A stretch of DNA of 64,000 nucleotides from an uncultured Lentimicrobiaceae bacterium (GTDB lineage Bacteria; Bacteroidota; Bacteroidia; Bacteroidales; F082). Location of the stretch: contig CAZJUQ010000054.1 in assembly GCA_964549335.1 (NCBI GenBank), forward strand, positions 53,663 through 117,662. The letters run 5' to 3'. A model generated the notes under the pieces. The model was not told where the DNA came from and did not search any database. It was given only the letters and a program-made list of their open reading frames with translations. Position numbers and translations under genes: made by a program. Positions 38,090 through 51,716 of this stretch are shown one piece after another. Numbering within the stretch: position 1 is the first letter of the stretch; each line of letters begins with the position of its first letter.

Positions 38090-38668
38090 TCAGAGCGGCG
38101 AATTATCCTGAAACAGTATCTTTAAAAAAGCCGCAATCTCCCGGAGATTGAGTATTTTGTGCGGCCTGACAAGTTTTATTGCCGATGAAGGCATAGCCGC
38201 ACTTTCCGCTTCGTCGGGGTTTTGTACTATGGTAAACCCTCCCCTATCTTTTATTGTTTTCAAACCTTGTGCGCCGTCGGAATTGGCTCCCGTTAACACG
38301 ATACCCACAAGTTGCTTTCCATAAGCAAGCGCCGCAGTTTCGAAAGTAACATCGATACTCGGACGCGAATAGTTGACCTTTTCTTCCACCGACAACGACA
38401 GAGTAAAATCCTCCTCTATCAACAAATGATAATTGGGCGGGGCAACATATGCCACTCCCGGTTTAATTACCTCTTTTTCGTCGGCCTCTTTTACCCTTAT
38501 GCCGGAAATATTATCCAAAAATTTAGCCATATAGCTTTCGGACGAAGGACTTATATGCTGAATAATAAAAACAGCGGCAGGAAAATCTGCCGGCAATTGC
38601 GGAAGTATTGTTTTCAGAGCATTGATTCCTCCCGCCGACGAGCCTATTGCCACTGCTTTGTACGGCAT
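38090..38668 (-). CDS. cheB: CheB-type protein-glutamate methylesterase, catalytic domain only (no receiver)
   Basis: 192 aa. AIGSSAGGINAL (Ser), FIIQHISPS (His) and TGANSDGAQG (Asp) correspond to the CheB catalytic triad regions. Starts 1 nt after the cheR stop. Confidence 0.88.
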   Translation of the reverse strand: MPYKAVAIGSSAGGINALKTILPQLPADFPAAVFIIQHISPSSESYMAKFLDNISGIRVKEADEKEVIKPGVAYVAPPNYHLLIEEDFTLSLSVEEKVNYSRPSIDVTFETAALAYGKQLVGIVLTGANSDGAQGLKTIKDRGGFTIVQNPDEAESAAMPSSAIKLVRPHKILNLREIAAFLKILFQDNSPL

Positions 38669-38669
38669 T

Positions 38670-39506
38670 TTACTTTATTCTCTTTTTGTAAATCTTTTGT
38701 TTTTCGCTGATGCTTTCGTAATTGGAGCCAATATCCGAAAACATAATTGTCTCTTTGCTTCCCAGCCCCAAAAATCCGCCTTTAACAAGACTTTCGTCGA
38801 AAAGTTTCAAAACCTTGTTTTGTAATTTACGATTAAAATATATTAAGACATTACGGCAAATAATCATGTTAACCTCTGCAAACACACTGTCGGAAACCAA
38901 ATTGTGTTCGGCAAAAACAATATTCGACTTTAATGATTGATCAAGGATTACCGAGTCGTATTTTGCCATGTAATAATCCGAAAACGAGTTTTTACCTCCG
39001 GCCTTTTGATAATTTACCGTATAGTTTTTGATATTTTCAATAGGATATATTCCCTTTTTAGCCGTTTCGATAACGCTACGGTTAAAATCGGTAGCATAAA
39101 TCTGGGTACGGTCGTAAAGTCCTTCTTCTTTAAGCATTACGGCAAAAGAGTAAACCTCTTCGCCGGTGGAACAACCGGCATGCCATATCTTAATGTAGGG
39201 ATATGTTTTCAGCACGGGAATAACTTCGGTGCGCACGGTTTTGTAAAAATCGGGGTCGCGGAACATCTCCGTAACGTTAATGGAGAGGTCTTTTATAAGT
39301 TTTTCGAAACACTTTTTATCGTACAATATTCTCCCCTGGATTTCCGACACCGAACCGGCTCCCGAATCCACAAGACGGTGCAAAATACGGCGTTTTACGT
39401 GTGCCCTGCTGTAATCGCGGAAATCGTATCCGTATTTCCTGTAAATAGCTTCCAAAAGAAGCTCTATCTCAATATTTTGTGTATCGTTATCGTCGTACGC
39501 TATCAT
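38670..39506 (-). CDS. cheR: CheR-type protein-glutamate O-methyltransferase
   Basis: N-terminal helical domain ([26 protein letters not shown]), [32 protein letters not shown]-binding motif. ATGA overlap with the upstream kinase. Confidence 0.9.
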
Positions 39507-41119
39507 TGTTTTATACTTTGTTCCTTGTTAGAAATATCCCCGAACAGTTTTTTCAAATCGTCCGATTTGAAAGGTTTGCTGACATAATAATCCATACCTG
39601 CGGCAAAACAGCGTTCGCGGTCCTCCTTGAAGGCATTTGCCGTTACGGCAACAATAACGGGTTCTTTTCCGGTTTTGTTATTTTCGTAATACTTCCGTAA
39701 TTTCCTTGTTGCTTCCAGCCCGTCCATTTCGGGCATATGAACATCCATCAAAATTACATCATAATTATTTTTAAGTTGCATTTCCACTGCTATTTTGCCG
39801 TTTTCGGCAATGTCGGTATCAATACCGAAAGATTTCAAAACCATTTTACCCACCTTTTGATTTATGGTATTATCTTCGGCAAGCAGCACTTTGAATTTTG
39901 TAAAATCGTAAAACGGTTTCCCGCTCTCCTGTTTTTTGGAGGTACCAACGGGTTCCGACTCCAAGGCTTTTATTGTAAACCAAAAATCGGAGCCCTTACC
40001 GGGTTTGCTTTCAACACCTATTTCGCCGCCGAGCATTTTCGACAATTTTTTGCTTATTGCCAAACCCAATCCCGTTCCGCCGTATTTTCGCGTAGTAGAT
40101 ATATCGGCCTGGGTAAACTCTTTAAATATATTTTCCTGTTTATCTTCGGGTATTCCTATACCCGTATCTATAACCTCAAATTTTATTACATGTCTGTTTT
40201 GTTGTTTTTGTACCGACCTCACCCTTATTGTTACCCCGCCGTTTTCAGTAAACTTTATAGCATTGTTGGTAAGGTTTATTAATATCTGATTTATTCTGAG
40301 CGAATCGCTGACAATAAATTCGGGAACATTTTCGTCTATTTCGGTTTTTAGATAAATACCTTTGTTTTCGGCTTTGAATTTCAACAAATTATAAACGGTA
40401 TCAAGTTGTTGATATAAATTAAAAGGTAATTCTTCAATTTCAATCTGTCCCGCTTCAATTTTCGAAAAATCAAGAATATCATTAATTATGGAAAGTAAAT
40501 TTTCGCCCGAAACACGGATAATTTCAAGGTTTTTTCTTTGGTCTTCGGTCAGGTCCGACTGTTCCAGCACTTCTGTCATTCCTATAATTCCGTTTAACGG
40601 GGTTCTTATTTCGTGACTCATATTTGCAAGAAACATCGATTTGGTATATGTAGCATATTCGGCTTTCTCTTTTGCTTCGCGCAACTCTTTATTCATTTTT
40701 TCTTTTTCGTCAAGCAGTTGTCTCAGCTGTTCCGACTGATTGTACAGGTCGAGAAAGACTTTAACTTTTCCTTGTAATATTTCGGGTTTTATAGGTTTCG
40801 AAATAAAATCGACGGCACCGCTTTCGATTCCTTTGACGACATAAAATTCGTCGGAATATATTGCCGACACAAATATTACGGGAAGATATTTTGTTTTGTC
40901 GTACATACGAAGCAACTCCACCGTCTCGTATCCGTCCATATCGGGCATTTGGACATCAATAATCGCCAGGGCAAAATCGTGGTGCAAAGTTTGCTTCAGA
41001 GCTTCGTTTCCCGAAAGCGCCCTCACAAATTCCACATCGAAATCTTGCAGCACCTTTTCCAAACTGATAAGATTCTCAAGGCGGTCGTCAACAATAAGTA
41101 TTTTGGGTTTTGTATTCAT
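39503..41119 (-). CDS. hybrid histidine kinase: REC - coiled coil - HisKA - HATPase - REC
   Basis: [13 protein letters not shown]; H-box [10 protein letters not shown]; [12 protein letters not shown]; C-terminal [16 protein letters not shown]. The ORF track starts at a TTG (41146); ATG 41119 gives [12 protein letters not shown]. Confidence 0.9.
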
Positions 41120-41130
41120 ACTGTTATTTG

Positions 41131-44100
41131 TTATTTGTATAACCAAACACGAATAAGCGAAATCATTTTATCAACATCGACGGGTTTTGTAAGATAATCA
41201 CTGGCACCCGACTTTAAAGCTTTTTCTTTATCTTCTTTCATAGCTTTGGCGGTAAGTATTATTACGGGCAAGTCTTTGTGTTTTTCGCTTTGACGGATTT
41301 TTTGCGTGGCGGTATATCCATCCATTTCGGGCATCATCACATCCATAAGCACCAGGTCTATATCTTCCACCTCTTCAAGCCGTTGGAGCGCCGTAACACC
41401 GTTATCGGCTTGTACCACCTCAAAACCGTGTTCCGATAAAATATGCGTCAGGGCAAATACATTTCGCATATCGTCATCAACCAAAAGGATTTTTTTGTCT
41501 TTAAAAAGTGTGTCTCCGTCGTGCAGGTCTTTTATCATTTTTTTCTTTTCGTCATCCATTTTATCCACCACTTGATGCAAAAAGAGTGCGGTTTCGTCAA
41601 GGAGCCGTTCGTCGGATTTTTCGCCTTTAATAATTACCGTACTTACATATTTTTCCAACTCTTGCGTCTCTTCTTTCGACAAGCTTCGGCCGGTATAAAC
41701 AATAACGGGAGGGATTTTTTTGTCGGTAAGGTTCTCGCGGTGAAGTTTTTTTATCAATTCGAATCCCGAAATATCGTTAATTCCAAGATCGAGGATAACA
41801 CAATCGAAATTTTTACTAAGTATTAGGTCGTAAGCATTGTTACCCGAAGTGGTTGTCGATATTTCAACACCGGGCGACTCCAATATTTTTTCAAGGGCTT
41901 TTGTTGTATTTGCATCGTCCTCGACAATAAGCAACTCTTTTACCTCTTTGTTAATGTAACTTTTAATATTTTTCATCACACCGTCAAGCTGTTCGTTAGT
42001 TACGGGTTTGCTTAAAATTCCGAATATGCATTTTTCGTTATGAAAGTCCGAAATATCGGTAGCGGACAAAACTTGAACCGGAATATGGCGCAACGAGGGG
42101 TTTTCCTTGATTATTTTAAGGAATTTATTGCCGTTCATTCCCGGCAGGTTCAAATCGAGTGTAATGGCATCGGGTTTATATTTTTCGGCCAAAATCAACC
42201 CCTGCTCGGCGGTTTGCGACACAATTCCTTTAAAATTGTACTTATGACTTTCGTTTAACAAAATTTTTGCAAACTGGGGGTCGTCTTCAATTATCAATAG
42301 CACATTGTCGAGGTCTGAAATATTGTCTCTGTCGTCGGGAATAAAGGGAGGTATCGAATCGGTCGATTCAGGTTCCGTGGCCGGTTTTGTTCCGGCGGGA
42401 GCGGCTGTAACGGTTTCGGATTGTTTTTCAACTTGCTTTTCACCGGGTTGCGACTGTTTAGGAGCGGTCTGTTTTGATTTCTCTTGGTTGTTTGATATGG
42501 AGACAGGGATACAAACGGTAAATGTCGAGCCCTTTCCGTATTCGCTTTTCAGGCTGATGCTTCCTCCCAGTTTACCTGCCAACTGTTTTGATATGGAGAG
42601 ACCCAATCCCGTGCCTCCGAATTTACGAGAAATACTGCCGTCGGCTTGTTGAAAAGCTTCGAAAATTGCCTGCTGTTTCTCTTCGGGGATACCTATTCCC
42701 GTATCCACCACATCTATGCAAATCGAATCGCCGGTGTACCCCTTAACCTTTGCAGGGTCGTTATTTTTGCGAAAACGGACGGTAACGCCTCCTTTTTGGG
42801 TAAATTTCAAAGCATTTGAGACAAGGTTTTTAAGAATTTGGTCGAGGCGTTGCCTGTCGGTAAAAAGGTTGTCGGACAGTTGGCCGTCAATTTCGGTTTT
42901 AAAATAGATACCTTTCTCACCGGCTACTTTTTCAAAAATATTTTTCAAACCCGACACAATAGCGGAAATACCGGTTTTGTCGGGATTAATCTGCATTTTT
43001 CCCGATTCTATTTTCGAGAGGTCGAGGATGTCGTTTATCAAATTGAGCAAATCTTTACCTGCATTGTAAATTATTTTTGCCGATTCTATCTGCTCGGCAG
43101 TAAGGTTACCTTTTTTGTTGTTGGTTAAATCTCTTGAGAGGATAAGCATTGAATTCAGCGGAGTTCTAAGCTCGTGTGACATATTTGCAAGAAATTCCGA
43201 TTTGTATTTACTTGCCTGTTCAAGTTCGCGGGCTTTTTGTTCCAGCTCTTTTTGCATTTTTTGCAACACGGCATTTTTCTCCATTATCTCTTTGCGTTGC
43301 ATTTCGAGGTCGTGTGTACGCTCTTCAAGTTCTTCGTTTGATACTTTAAGTTCTTCTTGCTGTTCCTGCAGCCGTTTTTCGTTTTCGCGCAACATTTCGG
43401 TTTGTTCTTCGAGTTCGGCATTGGCGGCGCGGAGTTCTTCCTGCTGTGTTTCGAGTTCTTCGGCTTGCTGCTGTGTTCGTTGCAAAAGGAGTGCTATTTT
43501 TTGGCGCGAGTCGGCAATTTGCAAGGCAGTGGCAAGCGGGGTGGATACCTGATTAAGCAACTCAACAAAAACTTTATCCACATCGTTTTGGGTGGCAATT
43601 TCCAAAATACCTACAGGCTCTTTATCGCCGGCAAACAGAGGCATAATAACGGCGGTTTTCGTAAAAAACTCTCCCGATGCCGAAAAAACCTTAAAGCCCT
43701 TTTCGGAAGCTTGCGAAACAATGGAGATTTTTTTATCAGCCCAAACCTGTCCTGTGAGCCCGTCACCTTTTTTTATTTCGGAGGGAATCAGATTTTCGTT
43801 AAGACCGTTTTTTGCAATCAGTTTCATTCTGTCGTTTTCTCTATAGAAAATGGCTCCTGCAAGGCTTCCCGTATATTCAATCAAAAACGAAAGAGCCTTG
43901 TTTCCCATCTGTCCGGGGTCTAAATCGCTGTTGAGGATTTTGTTGATTCTTGCCAACCCGTCGCGCAACCAGTTGTCGGTTTTTATCTTTTTTTCGTTCT
44001 TTTCGAGACTCTCGGCCATTTTGTTAAGAGCAACGGAGATTTCATCTTTTTCAGAACGCGGTTGTATCCTTGCCGAGTAATTTCCCGAAGCTATCGCTTG

Positions 44101-44964
44101 TGCATGTTTTAAAAAGCCTTGGAGATTTTTTTGTATGCTGTTGAACGACCTGATAAGCATTCCTATTTCATCTTTCGAATGGGGTTTTATGTCAATATTC
44201 AGATTGCCAAGCTCTATCTCTTTGAAATTTTTAACAAGTTTGGAAACCGGTTTTGAAATTGTGTTTGAAATTTTCAGTACAATGAAGTAGTTTATGATTA
44301 TCAAACTCAAAATAATAAAAAGGTTAAAGTAGCTTAGAATTTTTGTAATGAAATTGTTGATGTCGTTTATTTGAGATGCCAGACTATTGTAAAACAGCAT
44401 GATTTCACCGGAAGTATTTTGTATCTCTTCAAGTATTTCCTCATTTCCCGTCCGTTTATACATTTTTATTTTCGACAAAACATTTTCGCCCGTAACTAAT
44501 CCCGACTTGGTAATGTTAAACATTTTTTCAATACGGCTGAAGTGAAATTTGTAGAGATAATATATCCGGTTTGTTATCAGTTCTATTCTGCTTTGGTTGT
44601 ATTGTTTTCCGTAATACCGGGCAAACAGATTCAACATTGTGGTTTTATTATGATTTTTCACAATGCTGTCAACAATTGTCAAAGGATACAATGCCTTGTT
44701 TGCTTTTTCTATTTCGTTTACCGATTTTTCGTAAAACGAATCTTTATCGGTATTCAAATAAATTTGAAAATATTCCAATCCCCGGTTATAGTGCAAAGTA
44801 TGATAGCGTTCTATATCAATGATTGTATTAAACACCCCGATGGTACGGTAAATGAAATTTGAGACGAAAAGCAACAGCAACAGGTTGAAAATGACGGTAA
44901 GTTCGGCTACAATAAGTTTGTTTTTTATACCCAAATTATAGAACCAATTTTTGATTTTTCTCAT
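41131..44964 (-). CDS. large hybrid sensor kinase: TM - helical sensor - TM - HAMP x2 - GAF - 102-aa E/Q coiled coil - HisKA - HATPase - REC x3
   Basis: Two TM segments flank ~190 aa. HAMP-like [19 protein letters not shown]... and [26 protein letters not shown]-like ...[10 protein letters not shown]-box [10 protein letters not shown]; [12 protein letters not shown]. RECs: [37 protein letters not shown]. Confidence 0.9.
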
Positions 44965-45077: not shown

Positions 45078-48000
45078 TCAACTGTAAAGCCAAACTCTCA
45101 GCAAAGAGATAAGTTTTTCTTTTTCAACAGGTTTTGACAAATACTCGTTGGCACCGGCGGCGATACATTTTTCGCGGTCTTCTTTCATGGCTTTGGCAGT
45201 AAGGGCGATAATCGGCAAGTTTTTATATTTTTTCTCTTTTCTGATAAGACGCATCGCCTCGTAGCCGTCCATTTCGGGCATCATAATATCCATCAATATC
45301 AAATCGATATTATCGTTTTTGTGGAGTTTGTCGATAGCCTCTTTTCCGTTTTTTGCCACCACAACATTGGCATTGTATTCTTCGAGCAGACTTGTAAGGG
45401 CAAAGACATTCCGCATGTCGTCATCGACAATAAGAATGGTTTTCCCCTCAACAATATTTTCTTTTCCATGTGCTCCCTCCATCATTTTCTTTTTCTTTTC
45501 GGGGAAGTCGTCATCAATTTGATGCAAAAAGAGTGTTGTTTCGGCAAGCAGGCGTTCAAATGATTTTGCCCCTTTCAATATTATGCTTTGTGCATATTTT
45601 CTAAGCTTTTCGTTCTCTTCCTGAGAGAGGTCTTTGCTTGTGTAAATAACCACGGGTATGTTTTTCTGTTTTTCGTCGGCATTCATCTTTTCGAGCACTT
45701 CGTAACCGCTCATACCTTTCAATCCGAGGTCGAGGATAACACAATCGAAGTTACCGGAATTGAGTTTTTCAACAGCCTCTTCGCCGCTCTCAACCGATAC
45801 TATCTCTATTGACGAGTTTGCCATAAGTTCTTCAATGCTTTTTCTTGTAAGGGGCTCATCTTCGACTATCAGAAGTTTTTTTACCGGTTTATCGATAAAA
45901 TTTTCTATTTTATCAAATACCTCGTCCAATTGCGATTTGCTGACGGGTTTTGTTAAATATCCAATGGCTCCGTCTTTAAGGGCACTTATATCAAAGTCGC
46001 TCGACGAGATAATGTGAACCGGAATATTACGTGTTTTAGGGTTCTGCTTTAATACCGACAACACCTTTTTTCCGTCTATTCCGGGCAGTCTCATATCCAA
46101 AATTATCGCATTTGGTTTGTAATAATCGGCATGGTAAAGCCCAACTTCACCGGTATTTGCGATAATGCCTTTAAAACCGTGTTCGTGTGCAAGGTTCAAC
46201 AAAACTTTGGCAAAATTCAAATCGTCTTCGATAATGAGTATTGTTTTGTCTCCTTTTTTTATGGAATTGCGGTCGTCGGAAACGGGTTGGAGGTCTTTCT
46301 CTTCACCGTCATCAACTTTTTCAGAAGCATCTTTCAAGGTTTGATATGAGACACCTTCATTCTTAATTTTTTCCCTTGCTTCGGCTTTAGCCGTTTCGTT
46401 TTCAGCAGGTTTGTTTTCATCTGAATTACTTTCGCCGGTTTTCAGTTCGAACGGCAGGTATAGAATAAATTCGGAACCTTTACCCTCTTCGCTTTTCAAC
46501 CGCATAAATCCTCCGAGGAGTTCCGAAAAGTTTTTGGAAATACTCAATCCCAAGCCGGTGCCTCCATACTTACGGCTTGTGGTACCGTCGGCTTGTTTGA
46601 AAGCCTCGAAAATAAGGTCTTGTTTGTCTTTTGGGATGCCTATGCCGGTATCTATCACCGAAATTGCCACCATGGGCTTTTTGGTTTTTTCGTCGAAATC
46701 CTTTTTGATTTTAAAAGTTATGCTTCCCTTTTGGGTAAATTTTATGGCATTTGAGATAAGATTTTTTACTATTTGCTGAACGCGTTGAACATCGGTAATG
46801 AAGTATTCGGGGAGTTCAGGGTCTTTTTCAACTTTAAGTTCCAGTCCTTTTTCGTTTATTAAGGGTTCGAAGGTTCCTTTGATAAAATCGATAAGGTGGT
46901 CGAAATAGAGGCGTTCGGGAATAAGTTCAATGGCACCCGATTCTATTTTGGAGAGGTCGAGGATATCATTAATCAAATCGAGCAAATCGAGACCCGAAGA
47001 ATTAATGGTCTTGGCAAATTCCTGTTCTTTTTTGTCGAGGTGGTTTTTTTTGTTTTCGTTAAGCAATTGCGAAAGCACAATAATACTGTTGAGGGGTGTA
47101 CGTAGTTCGTGCGACATATTGGCAAGAAACTCCGATTTATAAAGGCTTGCAATTTCAAGGTCGCGAGCTTTTTGTTCTATCTCTTTACGTGCTATTTCCA
47201 GTTCCCGGTTTTTCTTACGTATGGCGTCGCGCTGAATTTCAAGGGCTTTTGTTCTCTCTTCAAGTTCTTCGTTAGTAACTTTAAGCTCTTCCTGCTGTTC
47301 TTGCAAATTTCTTTCCGACTGGCGCAGAGCTTCGGTCTGTTCTTGCAACTCTTCGTTAGCCTGCCTCAGTTCTTCTTGTTGTACTTCGAGTTCTTTTGCC
47401 TGCTGTTGCGTGCGCTCGAGCAACTCTTTTACCTTAATATGTGATTGCAGGGTTATGATTGCAAGGGCAATATCCTGAATTGCCAAATCGAGGAAATAGA
47501 GTTGGAGTTCGCTAAATCCGGTAACCGTAGCAAGCTCCATAACTCCCACCACTTCGTCTTTGTACGAAAATGGTACCACTGCAATCTGCTTGGGCAATTT
47601 CTTTTCCATGCCGAGGTCCAATACCAAGTCGTTATCTTCCGACGCCTTGATAATTATTCTTTTTTTATCTTTAAAGGCTTGTCCTATAATTCCTTGACCC
47701 GGCAAAACCTTTTTCGACAAACCTTTATGGTTTTTCGGAATTGCATATGTTGAGGTAAGTTTCAGGTGGTCGTCGTTGAAAAGGTAAAGCAAACCTGCCT
47801 GAGCTTCTATATAACGGGCAAAAAACGAGATAATTCCGTCGGCAAGTTCATCGATATTGAGTTTTCCTTTAAGCACTTTGTCAAGTTCGTTAAGACCGCT
47901 TTTAATCCAATCTTGTTTTTTAAACTCATTACTGTTTTTCCTCAGCGTTTCGGTCATTTTGTATAGTGCCTTACCGAGCGAGTCGTTTTCGCTGCGCGGT

Positions 48001-49463
48001 TTTATTATGGTATCGTAATCGCCTTCGGCAATACTGTTCGCCTGTTTTACAACACTGCGAAAACTTTCCACCATTTGGTTTATCGATTTTGCCAGCACGT
48101 CGTCTTTGCTTCGTTCGGTAACCTTTTCGGAGAAATCGCCCTTAGCCACAAGTCTTGCTATGTCGGCATAACGTTTGAGTGCGTTAACCAAATTGGTAAA
48201 GGTATCGCGCATCTCTCCTATTTCGTTTTTGGGAGCTTTTACACTTTTTACAACCAATTTTCCGGTGGTAATCTGTTTTGCCCACGACGACAGTTGCTTA
48301 ATGGGGTTAACAAACCAACGCGTAACAAGTATGGATATTAAGAAGACTACAATTATTGTAATGATAAAAGAAACCTTAACCATATTTGAGAGGCGGCGGG
48401 CATATGCAAAAGCTTCGGAGTGTTCAATCTCTTCAATAAGAGCCCAATGCAATCCGTATTTTTCAAGTTCGTTAAGATTCCGGTAAATACCGAGGACATA
48501 TTTCGATTTGTTATCGGCGTTGTAGGTTGTAACACGTTCGATATCCAGTTCGTTACGTTTGAGGTAGAGTTTATCGTTCCGGTGGTGTAGGAAATCGCGC
48601 CAAGCTAAAGTTTTATCGTTTTTGATTTGCCGTTTCAAGATTTCCGACTCGTTGCCAAACCTTGTAGCGGAACGCAGGTAGAGGTCGTCGCCAATAATAA
48701 AGGCATCACCGGTTTTCCCGTATCCGGCTTCCTGTTGTATCATTTCGTTGATAATGTTCATCGTTACCTGCAGGGCAAGCAATCCCGTAACTTTCCCTTC
48801 ATTATTGATAATAGGTTTGATAAAGAATCCCGAAATGATGTTGTAGCTCGGTTTGTAATGTTCCAAATCGGAGAACAGTATCTTTTTTTCTTCGGCGGCT
48901 TTACGTGCCGTTTTTGCAAATTTTGTTGCGTTAATTTCACTTTTGTAGATATTATATCCCAAATCCTCATCTTTTTTTGTGCGGAAAAGAATATTTCCTC
49001 CGGCATCGATGTAAAGGATATCGTAGAAATCTTGCAATTTCAATGAGTAGGTAAACTCTTTTTTCAGTTTTTTGGCAATTGAATCGTATTGTGCCGTTTT
49101 TACAAATTCACCTGCAGGGAGGCCGCTTTTTTTAAAAGCCTGTTCCAAACTATAGAATTGTTTAAGTTTTTGGGGCGAGTTGGCATTTATTTCAAGGAAA
49201 TTGGAAGCCTCGTCGAAGAAAGTGTATATATACCTCATACGCAGTTGCGAAGATGCGTTAAGCGATTTTTCGGCAACAATTGTCAAACCCTGATAAGCAT
49301 TTAAAAAGTTGATAAAACTAACAATGGCAAGAGGCACGAACGAAATGGCGAGAAACCATATCAACAATGATTTTCCCACACCAATGTATCTCCACGAACG
49401 CAATGAATATTTAAGTCGTTCCCATTTTGTGGCTTCGTTATAGTCGAGGTAATCTTTTTCCAT
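45078..49463 (-). CDS. large hybrid sensor kinase: TM - Cache-like sensor - TM - HAMP-like repeats - GAF - 102-aa E/Q coiled coil - HisKA - HATPase - REC x3
   Basis: TM at ~30-55 and ~365-385 flank a ~300-aa extracytoplasmic region. HAMP-like repeats (GDFSEKVTERSKDDVLAKSINQM; GDYDTIIKPRSENDSLGKALYKM). GAF-like ...VVGVMELAT. H-box [10 protein letters not shown]; [12 protein letters not shown]. RECs: IILDMRLPGIDG, VILDLGLKGMSG, LILMDIMMPEMDG. Confidence 0.9.
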   Translation of the reverse strand: MEKDYLDYNEATKWERLKYSLRSWRYIGVGKSLLIWFLAISFVPLAIVSFINFLNAYQGLTIVAEKSLNASSQLRMRYIYTFFDEASNFLEINANSPQKLKQFYSLEQAFKKSGLPAGEFVKTAQYDSIAKKLKKEFTYSLKLQDFYDILYIDAGGNILFRTKKDEDLGYNIYKSEINATKFAKTARKAAEEKKILFSDLEHYKPSYNIISGFFIKPIINNEGKVTGLLALQVTMNIINEMIQQEAGYGKTGDAFIIGDDLYLRSATRFGNESEILKRQIKNDKTLAWRDFLHHRNDKLYLKRNELDIERVTTYNADNKSKYVLGIYRNLNELEKYGLHWALIEEIEHSEAFAYARRLSNMVKVSFIITIIVVFLISILVTRWFVNPIKQLSSWAKQITTGKLVVKSVKAPKNEIGEMRDTFTNLVNALKRYADIARLVAKGDFSEKVTERSKDDVLAKSINQMVESFRSVVKQANSIAEGDYDTIIKPRSENDSLGKALYKMTETLRKNSNEFKKQDWIKSGLNELDKVLKGKLNIDELADGIISFFARYIEAQAGLLYLFNDDHLKLTSTYAIPKNHKGLSKKVLPGQGIIGQAFKDKKRIIIKASEDNDLVLDLGMEKKLPKQIAVVPFSYKDEVVGVMELATVTGFSELQLYFLDLAIQDIALAIITLQSHIKVKELLERTQQQAKELEVQQEELRQANEELQEQTEALRQSERNLQEQQEELKVTNEELEERTKALEIQRDAIRKKNRELEIARKEIEQKARDLEIASLYKSEFLANMSHELRTPLNSIIVLSQLLNENKKNHLDKKEQEFAKTINSSGLDLLDLINDILDLSKIESGAIELIPERLYFDHLIDFIKGTFEPLINEKGLELKVEKDPELPEYFITDVQRVQQIVKNLISNAIKFTQKGSITFKIKKDFDEKTKKPMVAISVIDTGIGIPKDKQDLIFEAFKQADGTTSRKYGGTGLGLSISKNFSELLGGFMRLKSEEGKGSEFILYLPFELKTGESNSDENKPAENETAKAEAREKIKNEGVSYQTLKDASEKVDDGEEKDLQPVSDDRNSIKKGDKTILIIEDDLNFAKVLLNLAHEHGFKGIIANTGEVGLYHADYYKPNAIILDMRLPGIDGKKVLSVLKQNPKTRNIPVHIISSSDFDISALKDGAIGYLTKPVSKSQLDEVFDKIENFIDKPVKKLLIVEDEPLTRKSIEELMANSSIEIVSVESGEEAVEKLNSGNFDCVILDLGLKGMSGYEVLEKMNADEKQKNIPVVIYTSKDLSQEENEKLRKYAQSIILKGAKSFERLLAETTLFLHQIDDDFPEKKKKMMEGAHGKENIVEGKTILIVDDDMRNVFALTSLLEEYNANVVVAKNGKEAIDKLHKNDNIDLILMDIMMPEMDGYEAMRLIRKEKKYKNLPIIALTAKAMKEDREKCIAAGANEYLSKPVEKEKLISLLRVWLYS

Positions 49464-49479: not shown

Positions 49480-51525
49480 TTAATTAATGTGTTCTTCTAT
49501 CATTTGATACAGGATATTTGGGTTTACCGGTTTGGAGATATAATAATCCATACCGGCGGCAAGGCACTTTTCCTTATCGCCTTTCATGGCATGTGCAGTC
49601 ATGGCAATAATCGGTATGTGTAAGCCCTTCTCTTTTTCAAATTCTCTTATCTTTTCTGTTGCTTCAAAACCGTCCATTTCAGGCATTTGCACATCCATAA
49701 GTATTAACGAGTAAGCTTCGGGATTTTCTTGTACCGCTTGGAGCGCCAACTTACCGTTTTCGACGGCTTTAGCGTCGTAACCCTTTTTTGCAAGCAGTTG
49801 CATTACTATTTTGCGGTTTATAATTTGATCTTCCGCCACCAGTATTTGCTTTCCGTTTCCCGCTTTCGATTTTCCTGTTTTTGTCTCTTTTCCCTGTTTT
49901 TTCTTCGGAGTTCCGGCAATTTGAGCATCTTCGTGAAAACCCTGAAGGCTGTCCGATTCGAGAAGGTTGCGCAATGTATTTTGCAAAACCGGTTTCATCA
50001 TAAAACCGAAATTAGCTTGCTTTCGTATTTTATCCAGTTCGACACTGGCTTTTACATGTGTAAGGAAAACGATGTTGTCGAGCGACTCTTTTTTTACCTT
50101 TTTTATTTTTTCGATAATGTTGTTTACAGGTAAATTGTTTAACGAAAAATCTATAAACATTATATCGTAATTCTCTTTTTCCAGCTTACCGATAAGTTCA
50201 TCTATTCCGGAAACCGCAACGGCATTAATATTCCAAAAATCAAAAAGTTTCAACATAATATTTCGCGGCTCTTCAAGGTCGTCGGCGACAAGAACTTTAA
50301 ATTCGCTTGCAGGTTTTTTCAGGTCGATTTTTTTCAAATCGGACTTTTGGTCGCCTGTAATCATGTTCAAGCTGAAAAAGAATTTGCTTCCCTTACCGGG
50401 CTGGCTTTCCACCTCTATTTTACCGCCCATAAGTTTAACGAGCATTTGTGCAATGTTAAGTCCGAGTCCGGTACCTCCGTGTTTGCGTGTTGTGTTCGAA
50501 TTAGCCTGAGTGTATTTTTCAAAGAGCTTCGGTATTTCGTCTTTTGGAATACCTATTCCGGTATCTTCAACGGCAAAAAATATTCTAACCTGCTCCTCCA
50601 CAAAGTCTTTCATCTCCACAACAAGTTTCACCACGCCTTTATCGGTAAATTTCACAGCATTGCTCAACAGGTTTGTCAATATTTGCCTTAATCTTAGCGG
50701 GTCGCCGATTATTACGTCGGGGATATCCGGCGACATATCTACAATCAATTCAATATCTTTCTGTTGTGCATGAACCGAGATAATCTTAAATACTTTTTCG
50801 ATAACATCCCTGATACTAAATTCAACCTCTTCAAGGTCGAGTTTTTCGGCTTCAATTTTCGAAATATCCAAAATGTCGTTAATAATTTCGAGGAGGGTAT
50901 AACCCGAGTTTTTAATGTCTTCGAGTCTTTCGCGCTGCATGGGGGTAAGGTCTTCATCCATTAAGCCCAAATCGGCCATACCGATAATTCCGTTGAGGGG
51001 TGTACGTATTTCGTGACTCATTGATGCCAGAAAGGCACTTTTGGCGCGTGTGGCTTCTTCGGCCATCATTTTTGCAGCATGCAACTCCTCCACGGTACGT
51101 TGCAGTTTTTCGGTGGTTTTTTGGAGTTCCTCCTTGTGTTTGAAAAGTTCGAGATAGGCGTTTATTTTGCTTTTTAAAATTTCCAGATCAAGGGGTTTGT
51201 AGAGGTAGTCAACGGCACCCGATTCGTATCCTTTGAAAATATGTTGGCGCTGTTTGCTTATAGCGGTCACAAAAATTATGGGGATATGTTTTGTACGTTC
51301 GCTGCTTCGCATTATTTGTGCGGTTTCGAAACCGTCCATTCCCGGCATCTGTACATCCATAAGCACAAGAGCCACATCGTGCTCAAGCAACAATCCCAAG
51401 GCTTCATTTCCCGAGTTGGCTTTTATAATGTTCATTTCGGGGCTCTCCAAAATTCCTTCAAGAGTTAAAAGGTTTTCGGGACGGTCGTCCACTATAAGAA
51501 TGTTATACTTTTTTTTATCGCTCAT
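49480..51525 (-). CDS. hybrid histidine kinase: REC - coiled coil - HisKA - HATPase - receiver-like - REC
   Basis: [13 protein letters not shown]; H-box [10 protein letters not shown]; [12 protein letters not shown]; degenerate receiver (VLVADD...IMFIDFS); C-terminal [19 protein letters not shown] 51525 gives [14 protein letters not shown]; the track start at 51612 is a TTG. Confidence 0.9.
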
Positions 51526-51599
51526 CGTATTTTGAAATTTCAAATATTTATGAACTATCGTTCGTTCGTTTCCGTAATAAAAAATTAAAAAGGTATAAG

Positions 51600-51607
51600 C
51601 AAAAATA
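51600..51607 (-). promoter_or_regulatory. candidate -7 box (TAnnTTTG) for the kinase/CheR/CheB operon
   Basis: Minus strand TATTTTTG, 74 nt upstream of ATG 51525. Confidence 0.4.
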
Positions 51608-51716
51608 AACAAAAATTTTGTTTTTGGAAATTTACAAAAAATTATCGGGTTTAAATTTCAACCGGCATGTCAAAAGGCAACAAGCCAGACAATTAACAAA
51701 AACCCGCAACATACGT

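Follow-up and report, generated by a model that had tools for sequence, protein, structure and literature searches.

Glutamate-pair coiled coils beside CheR and CheB: candidate adaptation segments in a family of hybrid histidine kinases

CheR and CheB are the textbook enzymes of chemoreceptor modification, and many genomes encode CheR/CheB pairs without a known substrate, such as the pair of the P. putida cfc cluster and the CheB-CheR fusion kinases. In Escherichia coli and Salmonella methyl-accepting chemotaxis proteins (MCPs) the methyl acceptor is the second glutamate of a Glu-Glu/Gln pair, with glutamine being deamidated by CheB, and these sites are strict for glutamate or glutamine in the second residue and looser in the first. 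Here, we analyze a 64,000-nucleotide stretch of DNA from an uncultured Lentimicrobiaceae bacterium (contig CAZJUQ010000054.1; the whole stretch is called the window), in which an operon with one CheR and one CheB encodes two large hybrid histidine kinases, each carrying a 102-residue coiled coil rich in glutamate and glutamine (E/Q). We lean towards the view that adaptation is the task of this segment, as a module within a 'methyl-accepting histidine kinase' on which the CheR and CheB of its gene cassette act; the rival explanations, taken together, fall a little short of being probable.

Similar systems have been described in Pseudomonas. The first protein of the cfcABCDE cluster of P. putida is CfcA, a hybrid kinase of CHASE3/GAF architecture, which activates the diguanylate cyclase CfcR (PMC4951495, PMC6849547); a chemotaxis role for the CheR/CheB pair of the cluster 'has been ruled out' (PMC4951495). 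Genes are arranged in the same order in the BmsA cluster of P. alkylphenolica, whose mechanisms 'have yet to be elucidated' (PMC8175716). Both clusters govern cyclic di-GMP (c-di-GMP), biofilm formation and motility (PMC4951495, PMC6849547, PMC8175716). A further relative is the CheBRA protein of R. sphaeroides, named a 'putative methyltransferase-methylesterase fusion' (PMC6829392). The cassette as a genetic entity, its enzymes and methylation-based adaptation are therefore already known; what is new is that a specific conserved site in a kinase, and not in a chemoreceptor, is put forward as a candidate acceptor. The two segments of the window and their glutamate pairs are the following.

47118..47423, minus strand: 102-residue E/Q-rich coiled coil of the 1461-residue kinase (residues 681-782), from translation and heptad analysis; family profile score 125.7 bits
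43183..43488, minus strand: paralogous 102-residue coiled coil of the 1277-residue kinase (residues 493-594), from translation; gapless alignment with the other segment, 73/102 identical (72%)
47265..47375, minus strand: span of the four conserved glutamate pairs of the 1461-residue kinase, from E697-E698 to E732-E733
47370-47375, minus strand: pair E697-E698 of the 1461-residue kinase
47349-47354, minus strand: pair E704-E705 of the 1461-residue kinase
47286-47291, minus strand: pair E725-E726 of the 1461-residue kinase
47265-47270, minus strand: pair E732-E733 of the 1461-residue kinase
43330..43461, minus strand: pairs of the 1277-residue kinase, E502-E503, E509-E510, A516-E517, E537-E538 and E544-E545

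Attention had been drawn to these segments by a sequence-only reading of the window. Its positions were correct but had to be read on the minus strand, since plus-strand translation gives nonsense; minus-strand translation of 47118-47423 and 43183-43488 reproduces exactly the two peptides that it quoted. Its placement of the segment between GAF domain and H-box in both kinases agrees with Pfam, which finds GAF_2 just 5' of the segments (residues 535-669 of the 1461-residue and 348-482 of the 1277-residue kinase) and HisKA just after them (starting at 776 and 588, respectively). The two kinases share 46% identity over their aligned regions as a whole. Glutamate and glutamine make up 37% and 40% of the two segments compared to 13% protein-wide, and Leu or Ile occupies the same heptad position through 13 consecutive heptads, a run that is not due to chance given an L+I frequency of 0.20 in both large kinases. 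E-E pairs stand at segment positions 17-18, 24-25, 45-46 and 52-53; the 1277-residue kinase has A-E at positions 24-25 and an additional E-E pair at 10-11.

The pairs are conserved site by site. For this analysis homologues were retrieved by the whole GAF-coil-HisKA region and reduced to 69 sequences less than 80% identical within the segment, giving the following residue counts (n=69).

Site 1: first residue E59, D7; second residue E67
Site 2: first residue E52, A8; second residue E65
Site 3: first residue E33, A22; second residue E65
Site 4 (last): first residue E33, A14, V7, S6; second residue E34, Q29

At the second residue of site 4, Asp and Lys are absent from the set, and the extra pair at positions 10-11 has glutamate in 61 and 64 sequences. 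The equivalent positions of the intervening heptads vary freely, Asn23 and Asn51 of the segment are invariant, and the coil ranks among the most conserved stretches of these proteins of about 1300 residues. By analogy, the glutamate pairs of the family behave like MCP methylation sites, the second residue being E or E/Q and the first tolerating A, S, V or D. No pattern linking glutamine at site 4 to the presence of CheB was seen in the few cassettes that lack CheB.

Long coiled coils are rich in E, Q and L, and the resemblance to methylation sites might accordingly be compositional, with the CheR/CheB link arising from chance plus the shared ancestry of one operon. Sub-threshold matches of the segment to generic coiled-coil Pfam families would fit this explanation, as would the nature of its PDB matches, which are designed helical proteins with E ~0.1. 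Set against it is the specificity of the motif: EE[LIVM]x4EE[LIVM] occurs in 89/90 family open reading frames (ORFs) and in 4/~2350 other ORFs of at least 100 residues (1.36 Mb, with many kinases that have coiled-coil linkers). Similarly, a bias-corrected profile gives 24-126 bits for family and fusion coils and at most 10.5 bits for everything else, the latter being the best score of an unrelated ORF among 2611, many kinase linkers included. Among 1.84 billion cluster representatives, 1556 match the profile at E<=0.001 and 464 at E<=1e-10. Motif specificity, profile separation and column conservation have largely refuted the compositional explanation already, and we regard it as very improbable.

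No curated Pfam or NCBIfam model and no solved PDB structure covers the coil. A weak match of PF28019 ('HmpF') on it was set aside as generic coiled-coil similarity, and a word-index homologue search with 76 residues of the coil alone returned 2 proteins, such an index being poor for low-complexity queries.

The sequence-only reading had proposed to compare the occurrence of the motif with that of adjacent CheR and CheB genes, and the outcome is strongly positive. A genome scan with both segments provided 79 loci, taken from at least 251 confirmed places, in at least ten phyla, including Bacteroidota, Chlorobiota, Planctomycetota, Desulfobacterota, Myxococcota, Firmicutes (Clostridiaceae), Cyanobacteriota and Chloroflexota. 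Where at least 4 kb lie downstream of the coil (n=60), a CheR is present on the same strand in 59/60 loci and a CheB in 56/60, which makes the coupling near-obligate. CheR comes directly after the kinase or past one REC-kinase gene in 57/59 loci and upstream in two. Downstream CheR genes start about 2.0-2.4 kb after the coil, directly behind the kinase, or at 3.6-4.2 kb, as in the window, where a REC-kinase gene lies in between. In other loci without CheR the sequence ends soon after the match, the sole exception with full flanks being an Anaerolineales locus. Plasmids give a consistent picture, the cassette being seen on those of alphaproteobacteria: tblastn against 72,556 plasmids found the coil in 59 records, and a separate CheR search placed a CheR 2.2-2.9 kb downstream of the coil in about 38 plasmid records. 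Annotated plasmid cassettes of Rhizorhabdus and Agrobacterium consist of hybrid kinase, CheR, CheB and REC-kinase, and one metagenome contig has the same gene order.

Variants of the cassette that lack CheB are found at L084 (2065-9537), L085 (3882-9656) and L086 (3843-9665) and also at L051, L055 and L071. In L084-L086, which are plasmids, the gene after CheR encodes a REC-PAS-kinase, HWE-like in two. If methylation occurs in these CheB-less cassettes, there would be no dedicated esterase nearby.

Because a glutamate-pair helix is almost always encoded beside a dedicated CheR and CheB, the coil kinases rather than chemoreceptors are probably what the enzymes of the operon modify. In the window the operon comprises the following genes, in this order on the minus strand and with tight or overlapping junctions; the phospho-acceptor histidines are given below their kinases.

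49480..51612, minus strand: first gene of the cluster, REC-HisKA-HATPase-REC-REC kinase, 710 residues as listed (Pfam); without the E/Q coiled coil
45078..49463, minus strand: hybrid histidine kinase, 1461 residues, with dCache_1, HAMP, GAF, coiled coil, HisKA, HATPase and three REC domains (Pfam)
47109-47111, minus strand: phospho-acceptor His785 in the HisKA domain of the 1461-residue kinase
41131..44964, minus strand: hybrid histidine kinase, 1277 residues, with HAMP, GAF, coiled coil, HisKA, HATPase and three REC domains (Pfam)
43174-43176, minus strand: His597 in the HisKA domain of the 1277-residue kinase
39503..41146, minus strand: REC-HisKA-HATPase-REC kinase, 547 residues as listed (Pfam); without the E/Q coiled coil
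38670..39506, minus strand: CheR-type glutamate O-methyltransferase, 278 residues, CheR_N and CheR domains (Pfam E=1.2e-42)
38090..38668, minus strand: CheB methylesterase/deamidase, 192 residues, catalytic domain only, no receiver domain (Pfam E=6e-60)

The segment had been described as missing from the two smaller kinases, and indeed the profile gives 8.7 bits for the 710-residue kinase and no match at E<=10 for the 547-residue kinase. The latter is the counterpart of the REC-kinase gene of the conserved cassette, similar genes being present in the cassettes of other organisms. The listed TTG starts of both smaller kinases (49480-51612 and 39503-41146) are probably too far upstream; the true start of the 710-residue kinase is likely an internal MSDKKK and that of the 547-residue kinase possibly a later Met, which alters the calls of gene overlap. 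For the hydrophobic N-terminal region of the 1277-residue kinase no Pfam sensor match was obtained.

The 64-kb window holds this single CheR/CheB pair. Judged by alignment, the catalytic triad of CheB is intact: Ser11, His38 and the Asp of ANSDG align with Ser164, His190 and Asp286 of Salmonella CheB (PDB 1a2o). CheR has a near-full-length Pfam match, yet it scores 85 bits against the E. coli-type CheR model (cut-off 435); it is 45-78% identical to the cassette CheRs of other phyla and plasmids. With the Tsr signalling domain as tblastn query, neither the window nor any of the 79 genome loci (L001-L079) gave a match to an MCP signalling domain. Genes for CheA, CheW or MCPsignal were not seen in them either, and the window shows no diguanylate cyclase partner. 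Residues 2-34 of CheB (38570-38665) have phmmer matches to TAL-effector repeats in the PDB with whole-sequence E-values of ~1e-6 to 1e-12; no single stretch is significant, and the similarity is taken as chance composition.

The same kind of coil is also found physically joined to both enzymes. The statement in the sequence-only reading that NEEL repeats occur in CheB-CheR fusion kinases was confirmed with examples from Agrobacterium and Burkholderia. A NEEL-repeat query peptide of the kind found in such fusions matched 87 plasmid records, and the annotated features under the listed matches were all 'CheR family methyltransferase'. The Agrobacterium fusion has the architecture CheB_methylest, CheR, coil, PAS_10 and HWE_HK, and that from Burkholderia consists of CheB, CheR, coil, PAS_10, PAS, HisKA, HATPase and REC; the coils of both carry NEEL/EEL heptads. 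A profile made from kinases only recognizes these coils with 32 bits (E=1.5e-8) in Agrobacterium and 24 bits (E=5.6e-6) in Burkholderia, the match being gapless over model positions 4-77 (~74 residues) with the E-E pairs in register. The CheR domains of the fusions are ~30% identical to the CheR of the window, compared to 45-78% for the cassette CheRs; coils of one kind are thus linked with two separate CheR lineages. No fusions appeared in a CheR homologue search, in which the top 120 matches listed were all stand-alone close relatives, and no fused CheR or CheB domain was found in the top 150 representatives of the profile search.

These top 150 representatives also served for a census of domains and lengths. 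An H-box lies downstream of the coil in 139, and the distance from the start of the coil to the histidine is 104 residues in 84 and 132 in 23. The exact 102-residue length stressed in the sequence-only reading is therefore true of both segments but not peculiar to the pair, as it is the modal length of the family (84/139 representatives). Nine more representatives have distances of 97, 111, 118, 125 or 146 residues, and these shorter spacings (97-146) differ always by multiples of seven, that is by whole heptads. The remaining 23 have spacings of 181-714 residues, mostly not multiples of seven, where other sequence probably lies between coil and HisKA. Longer coils contain added copies of QQEEL-x2-NEEL-EEQT-x-AL-K-x-SE-x2-L or of its first half, and changes in coil length are mostly the addition of 14- or 28-residue QQEEL/NEEL E-E units. 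One or more extra 28-residue double E-E units or 14-residue halves are seen in P0123, P0124, P0128, P0145 and P0180; with at least four near-identical 28-residue repeats in P0180, the coil behaves as an expandable repeat array.

Among 36 representatives scanned for domains, GAF, HisKA, HATPase and REC are present in all and HAMP in 32. Their sensors are dCache_1 in 14, 4HB_MCP_1 in 7, an MCP-like PDC in 3 and TarH, HBM and CHASE3 in one each; with CHASE3 in 1/36 and dCache_1 in 14/36, the sensor varies within the family. These kinases look like the N-terminal half of an MCP, a chemoreceptor-type sensor plus HAMP, joined to a GAF-coil-kinase. By sequence comparison, CHASE3/GAF kinases of the CfcA/BmsA type from Pseudomonas belong to the family: those of P. 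syringae and P. fragi carry the motif, show 40-42% identity to the query region and have their histidine at about position 503. These two were the sequences compared, CfcA and BmsA being likened by published description and architecture.

Several further observations concern members of the family. On a long European Nucleotide Archive contig (L087, 8070-11574) a family kinase is called as the short genes CHASE3, GAF-coil-HisKA, REC and REC, probably a result of assembly frameshifts, and many database 'proteins' of the coil-kinase family are such fragments. A cyanobacterial contig (L063, 116-1130) has a short HisKA-HATPase ORF just upstream of a family kinase, with three consecutive E-E heptads before the H-box; this could be a second member of the family or a truncated one. 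The C-termini of the window kinases (45078-45100 and 41131-41153) and of members from L001-L086 share the strikingly conserved ending L-[LM]-R-V-W-L-Y-[KRSNQ], with R-V-W-M-P-R as the alphaproteobacterial form. Aromatic like the pentapeptide tether of MCPs, the RVWLY terminus was considered as a CheR/CheB-binding pentapeptide and rejected: the residues are not spaced as in xWxxF, and the last REC helix ends with them.

To examine the geometry of the coil, residues 340-700 of the 1277-residue kinase were modelled with AlphaFold2 from 116 aligned sequences (mean predicted local distance difference test score, pLDDT, 89.6). The monomer model contains a single uninterrupted helix of 152 residues (query 125-276, residues 464-615 of the kinase) that takes in the last GAF helix, the entire 102-residue segment and the H-box helix past the histidine. 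Block-mean pLDDT is at least 90 from the start of the helix to about query 240 (~residue 579) and 75-84 thereafter. With Leu at d, the a positions read Ala/Gln/Asn/Thr/Glu/Gln/Asn/Thr, which places the E-E pairs at b and c; this register is an assumption, and Leu at a may also fit the monomer model. An MCP-type antiparallel hairpin, which forms a four-helix bundle in the dimer, was not found in the monomer model, in which one continuous helix runs into DHp helix 1.

We infer the methyl transfer, its acceptor residues and its effect on the kinase as follows. The segment would form a long coiled coil, parallel and weakly packed, with Leu at d and Asn, Gln or Thr at a, a single helix leading from GAF into the phospho-accepting DHp helix and bearing four or five glutamate pairs in 14- or 28-residue units. 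In each pair the second glutamate would receive a methyl group from the CheR of the operon, the predicted methyl acceptors in the 1461-residue kinase being E698, E705, E726 and E733, and the receiver-less CheB would demethylate them and deamidate the second residue where glutamine is encoded. Neutralization of charge would alter packing or register of the helix and with it the set level of kinase output, an effect that methylation also has in chemoreceptors. Here helix and kinase are covalently joined, no MCP, CheA or CheW would be involved, and the single CheR/CheB pair would be common to both large kinases.

The chief rival gives the helix a purely structural part in signalling. According to it, the segment is a conserved coil resembling the signalling helix (S-helix), which passes the GAF signal to DHp and owes its polar core and acidic surface to helix dynamics, while CheR and CheB modify receiver domains, the REC-kinase or an unlinked protein. 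The modelled continuous helix from GAF to H-box suits such a role, and length changes keep the register. Furthermore, S-helices reportedly carry an ERT signature (Anantharaman et al. 2006), and an 'EERT'-like stretch at positions 55-58 resembles this signature; 'E-[RKQ]-[TAS]' at positions 56-58 is only moderately conserved. The unmet MCP consensus also agrees with this rival, as does a precedent for other targets: methylation of the response regulator PhoP by CheR in Salmonella is described (PMC8546571), and each large kinase has three REC domains. A structural helix would, however, leave unexplained why exposed glutamates are invariant where equivalent neighbouring positions vary, why one site holds E or Q near-exclusively, and why the E-E coil recurs in GAF-less fusions with a distant CheR. 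We judge this rival unlikely, although it deserves serious weight.

Alternatively, the E/Q-rich coil could be a docking platform that recruits CheR/CheB or the REC-kinase partner in the manner of a tether, its glutamates not being methylation sites. The coupling evidence speaks for docking in the same way as for methylation, conserved exposed residues suit any protein-protein interface, and the fusion proteins hold coil and enzymes in one polypeptide. Yet a docking surface needs neither 14- or 28-residue repeats nor expansion by such units, and the alternation of E and Q without D or K at one site is what a modifiable site predicts. Docking alone thus appears improbable.

A number of points also weigh against the proposal that the coil is methylated. 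None of 83 family segments fits the MCP consensus [ASTG]2-x2-[EQ]2-x2-[ASTG]2, as had been noticed for the two window segments from the outset, and Pfam finds no MCPsignal (PF00015) match in either large kinase. As one continuous helix leads directly into HisKA, the model leads us to expect a parallel two-helix coil and not the antiparallel four-helix bundle usual for CheR/CheB. The association with CheR and CheB is a trait of the whole kinase family, and another part of the kinase or a partner could be the target; being shared by the whole family, genomic association alone cannot tell the coil from the rest of the kinase. In the Anaerolineales locus (L076, 7772-13626) the kinase is followed directly by a REC-kinase with neither CheR nor CheB, and the coil is kept, A-Q and S-E pairs included; decay of the motif was looked for in this single case, and it is no more degenerate than in alphaproteobacterial cassettes with both enzymes. 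Some cassettes (Deinococcus, Ketogulonicigenium, Sphingobium) have CheR without CheB and retain the E-E heptads of the kinase. The 79 genome loci were found via peptide patterns spanning positions 4-19, which inflates conservation there; for this reason conservation was not judged on the genome loci alone, the A3 and plasmid sets being free of this selection bias. From the literature, the crinkly-colony phenotype of P. putida persisted on mutation of the other cfc genes (PMC4951495), the PhoP case is a precedent for a different kind of CheR target, and a limited literature search found no report of methylation or deamidation of a kinase.

Weighing both sides, we still consider an adaptation module served by the cassette CheR and CheB somewhat probable, because of the combined evidence from helix anatomy, operon, coupling, site pattern, conservation, heptad-wise length changes, fusions, sensors and literature. 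The initial interpretation of the segments as candidate CheR/CheB substrates is supported, as a candidate, by the coupling, fusion and consensus checks. A broader proposal, which could go either way, is that 'methyl-accepting histidine kinases' are a widespread class (at least 1556 clusters in many phyla) whose modular glutamate-pair array undergoes reversible methylation, with a dedicated CheR and a receiver-less CheB as its enzymes, which would also account for the orphan CheR3/CheB3-type pair of Pseudomonas and for the fusions. If this holds, two-component signalling would gain adaptation and memory, so far known only in MCP-CheA arrays, and its dynamic range would depend on how many units are present. 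The at least 1556 clusters include organisms not known for chemotaxis. This would bear on how biofilm and c-di-GMP decisions made through CfcA and BmsA follow the change of a stimulus and not its absolute level. For experiments, the analysis points to a short, mutable candidate target for non-chemotaxis CheR/CheB pairs, namely four or five second-position glutamates on one kinase helix.

Among known systems, the adaptation helices of MCPs share with the coil kinases E-E/E-Q pairs at heptad spacing, a coiled coil downstream of sensor and HAMP, linkage to CheR/CheB genes, and heptads or sites that vary in whole units; N-terminal sensor kinds (dCache, 4HB_MCP, TarH, HBM) are shared as well. They differ in having an MCPsignal domain, a hairpin, a small-residue consensus and a CheB with receiver. 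In MCPs, CheR adds the methyl groups and CheB carries out demethylation or deamidation, whereas for the coil kinases these reactions are predicted from genes and sequence. S-helices resemble the segment in connecting GAF, PAS or HAMP to HisKA by a coiled coil in which polar residues are conserved and an ERT-like stretch occurs. In contrast to them, the segment of the window is about twice as long (102 versus ~40-50 residues), has repeated E-E units and is tied to CheR/CheB, a gene linkage that to our knowledge is not a feature of S-helices.

The CheB-CheR fusion kinases of the R. sphaeroides 'CheBRA' type have x-x-[NK]-E-E-L-x heptads in a coil directly upstream of the signalling module, and there the coil is physically linked to CheB and CheR. 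Unlike in the window, their enzymes are fused and not separate, six of six heptads have E-E, GAF is missing and CheR is distant. The CfcA/BmsA clusters share the cassette of the window, their GAF hybrid kinase with REC being followed by a CheR, a REC-less CheB and then a REC-kinase. They have a CHASE3 sensor, whereas the window kinases have dCache_1 plus HAMP or HAMP only, and the window differs further in its two tandem coil-bearing kinases, its two REC-kinases and its Bacteroidales-like host.

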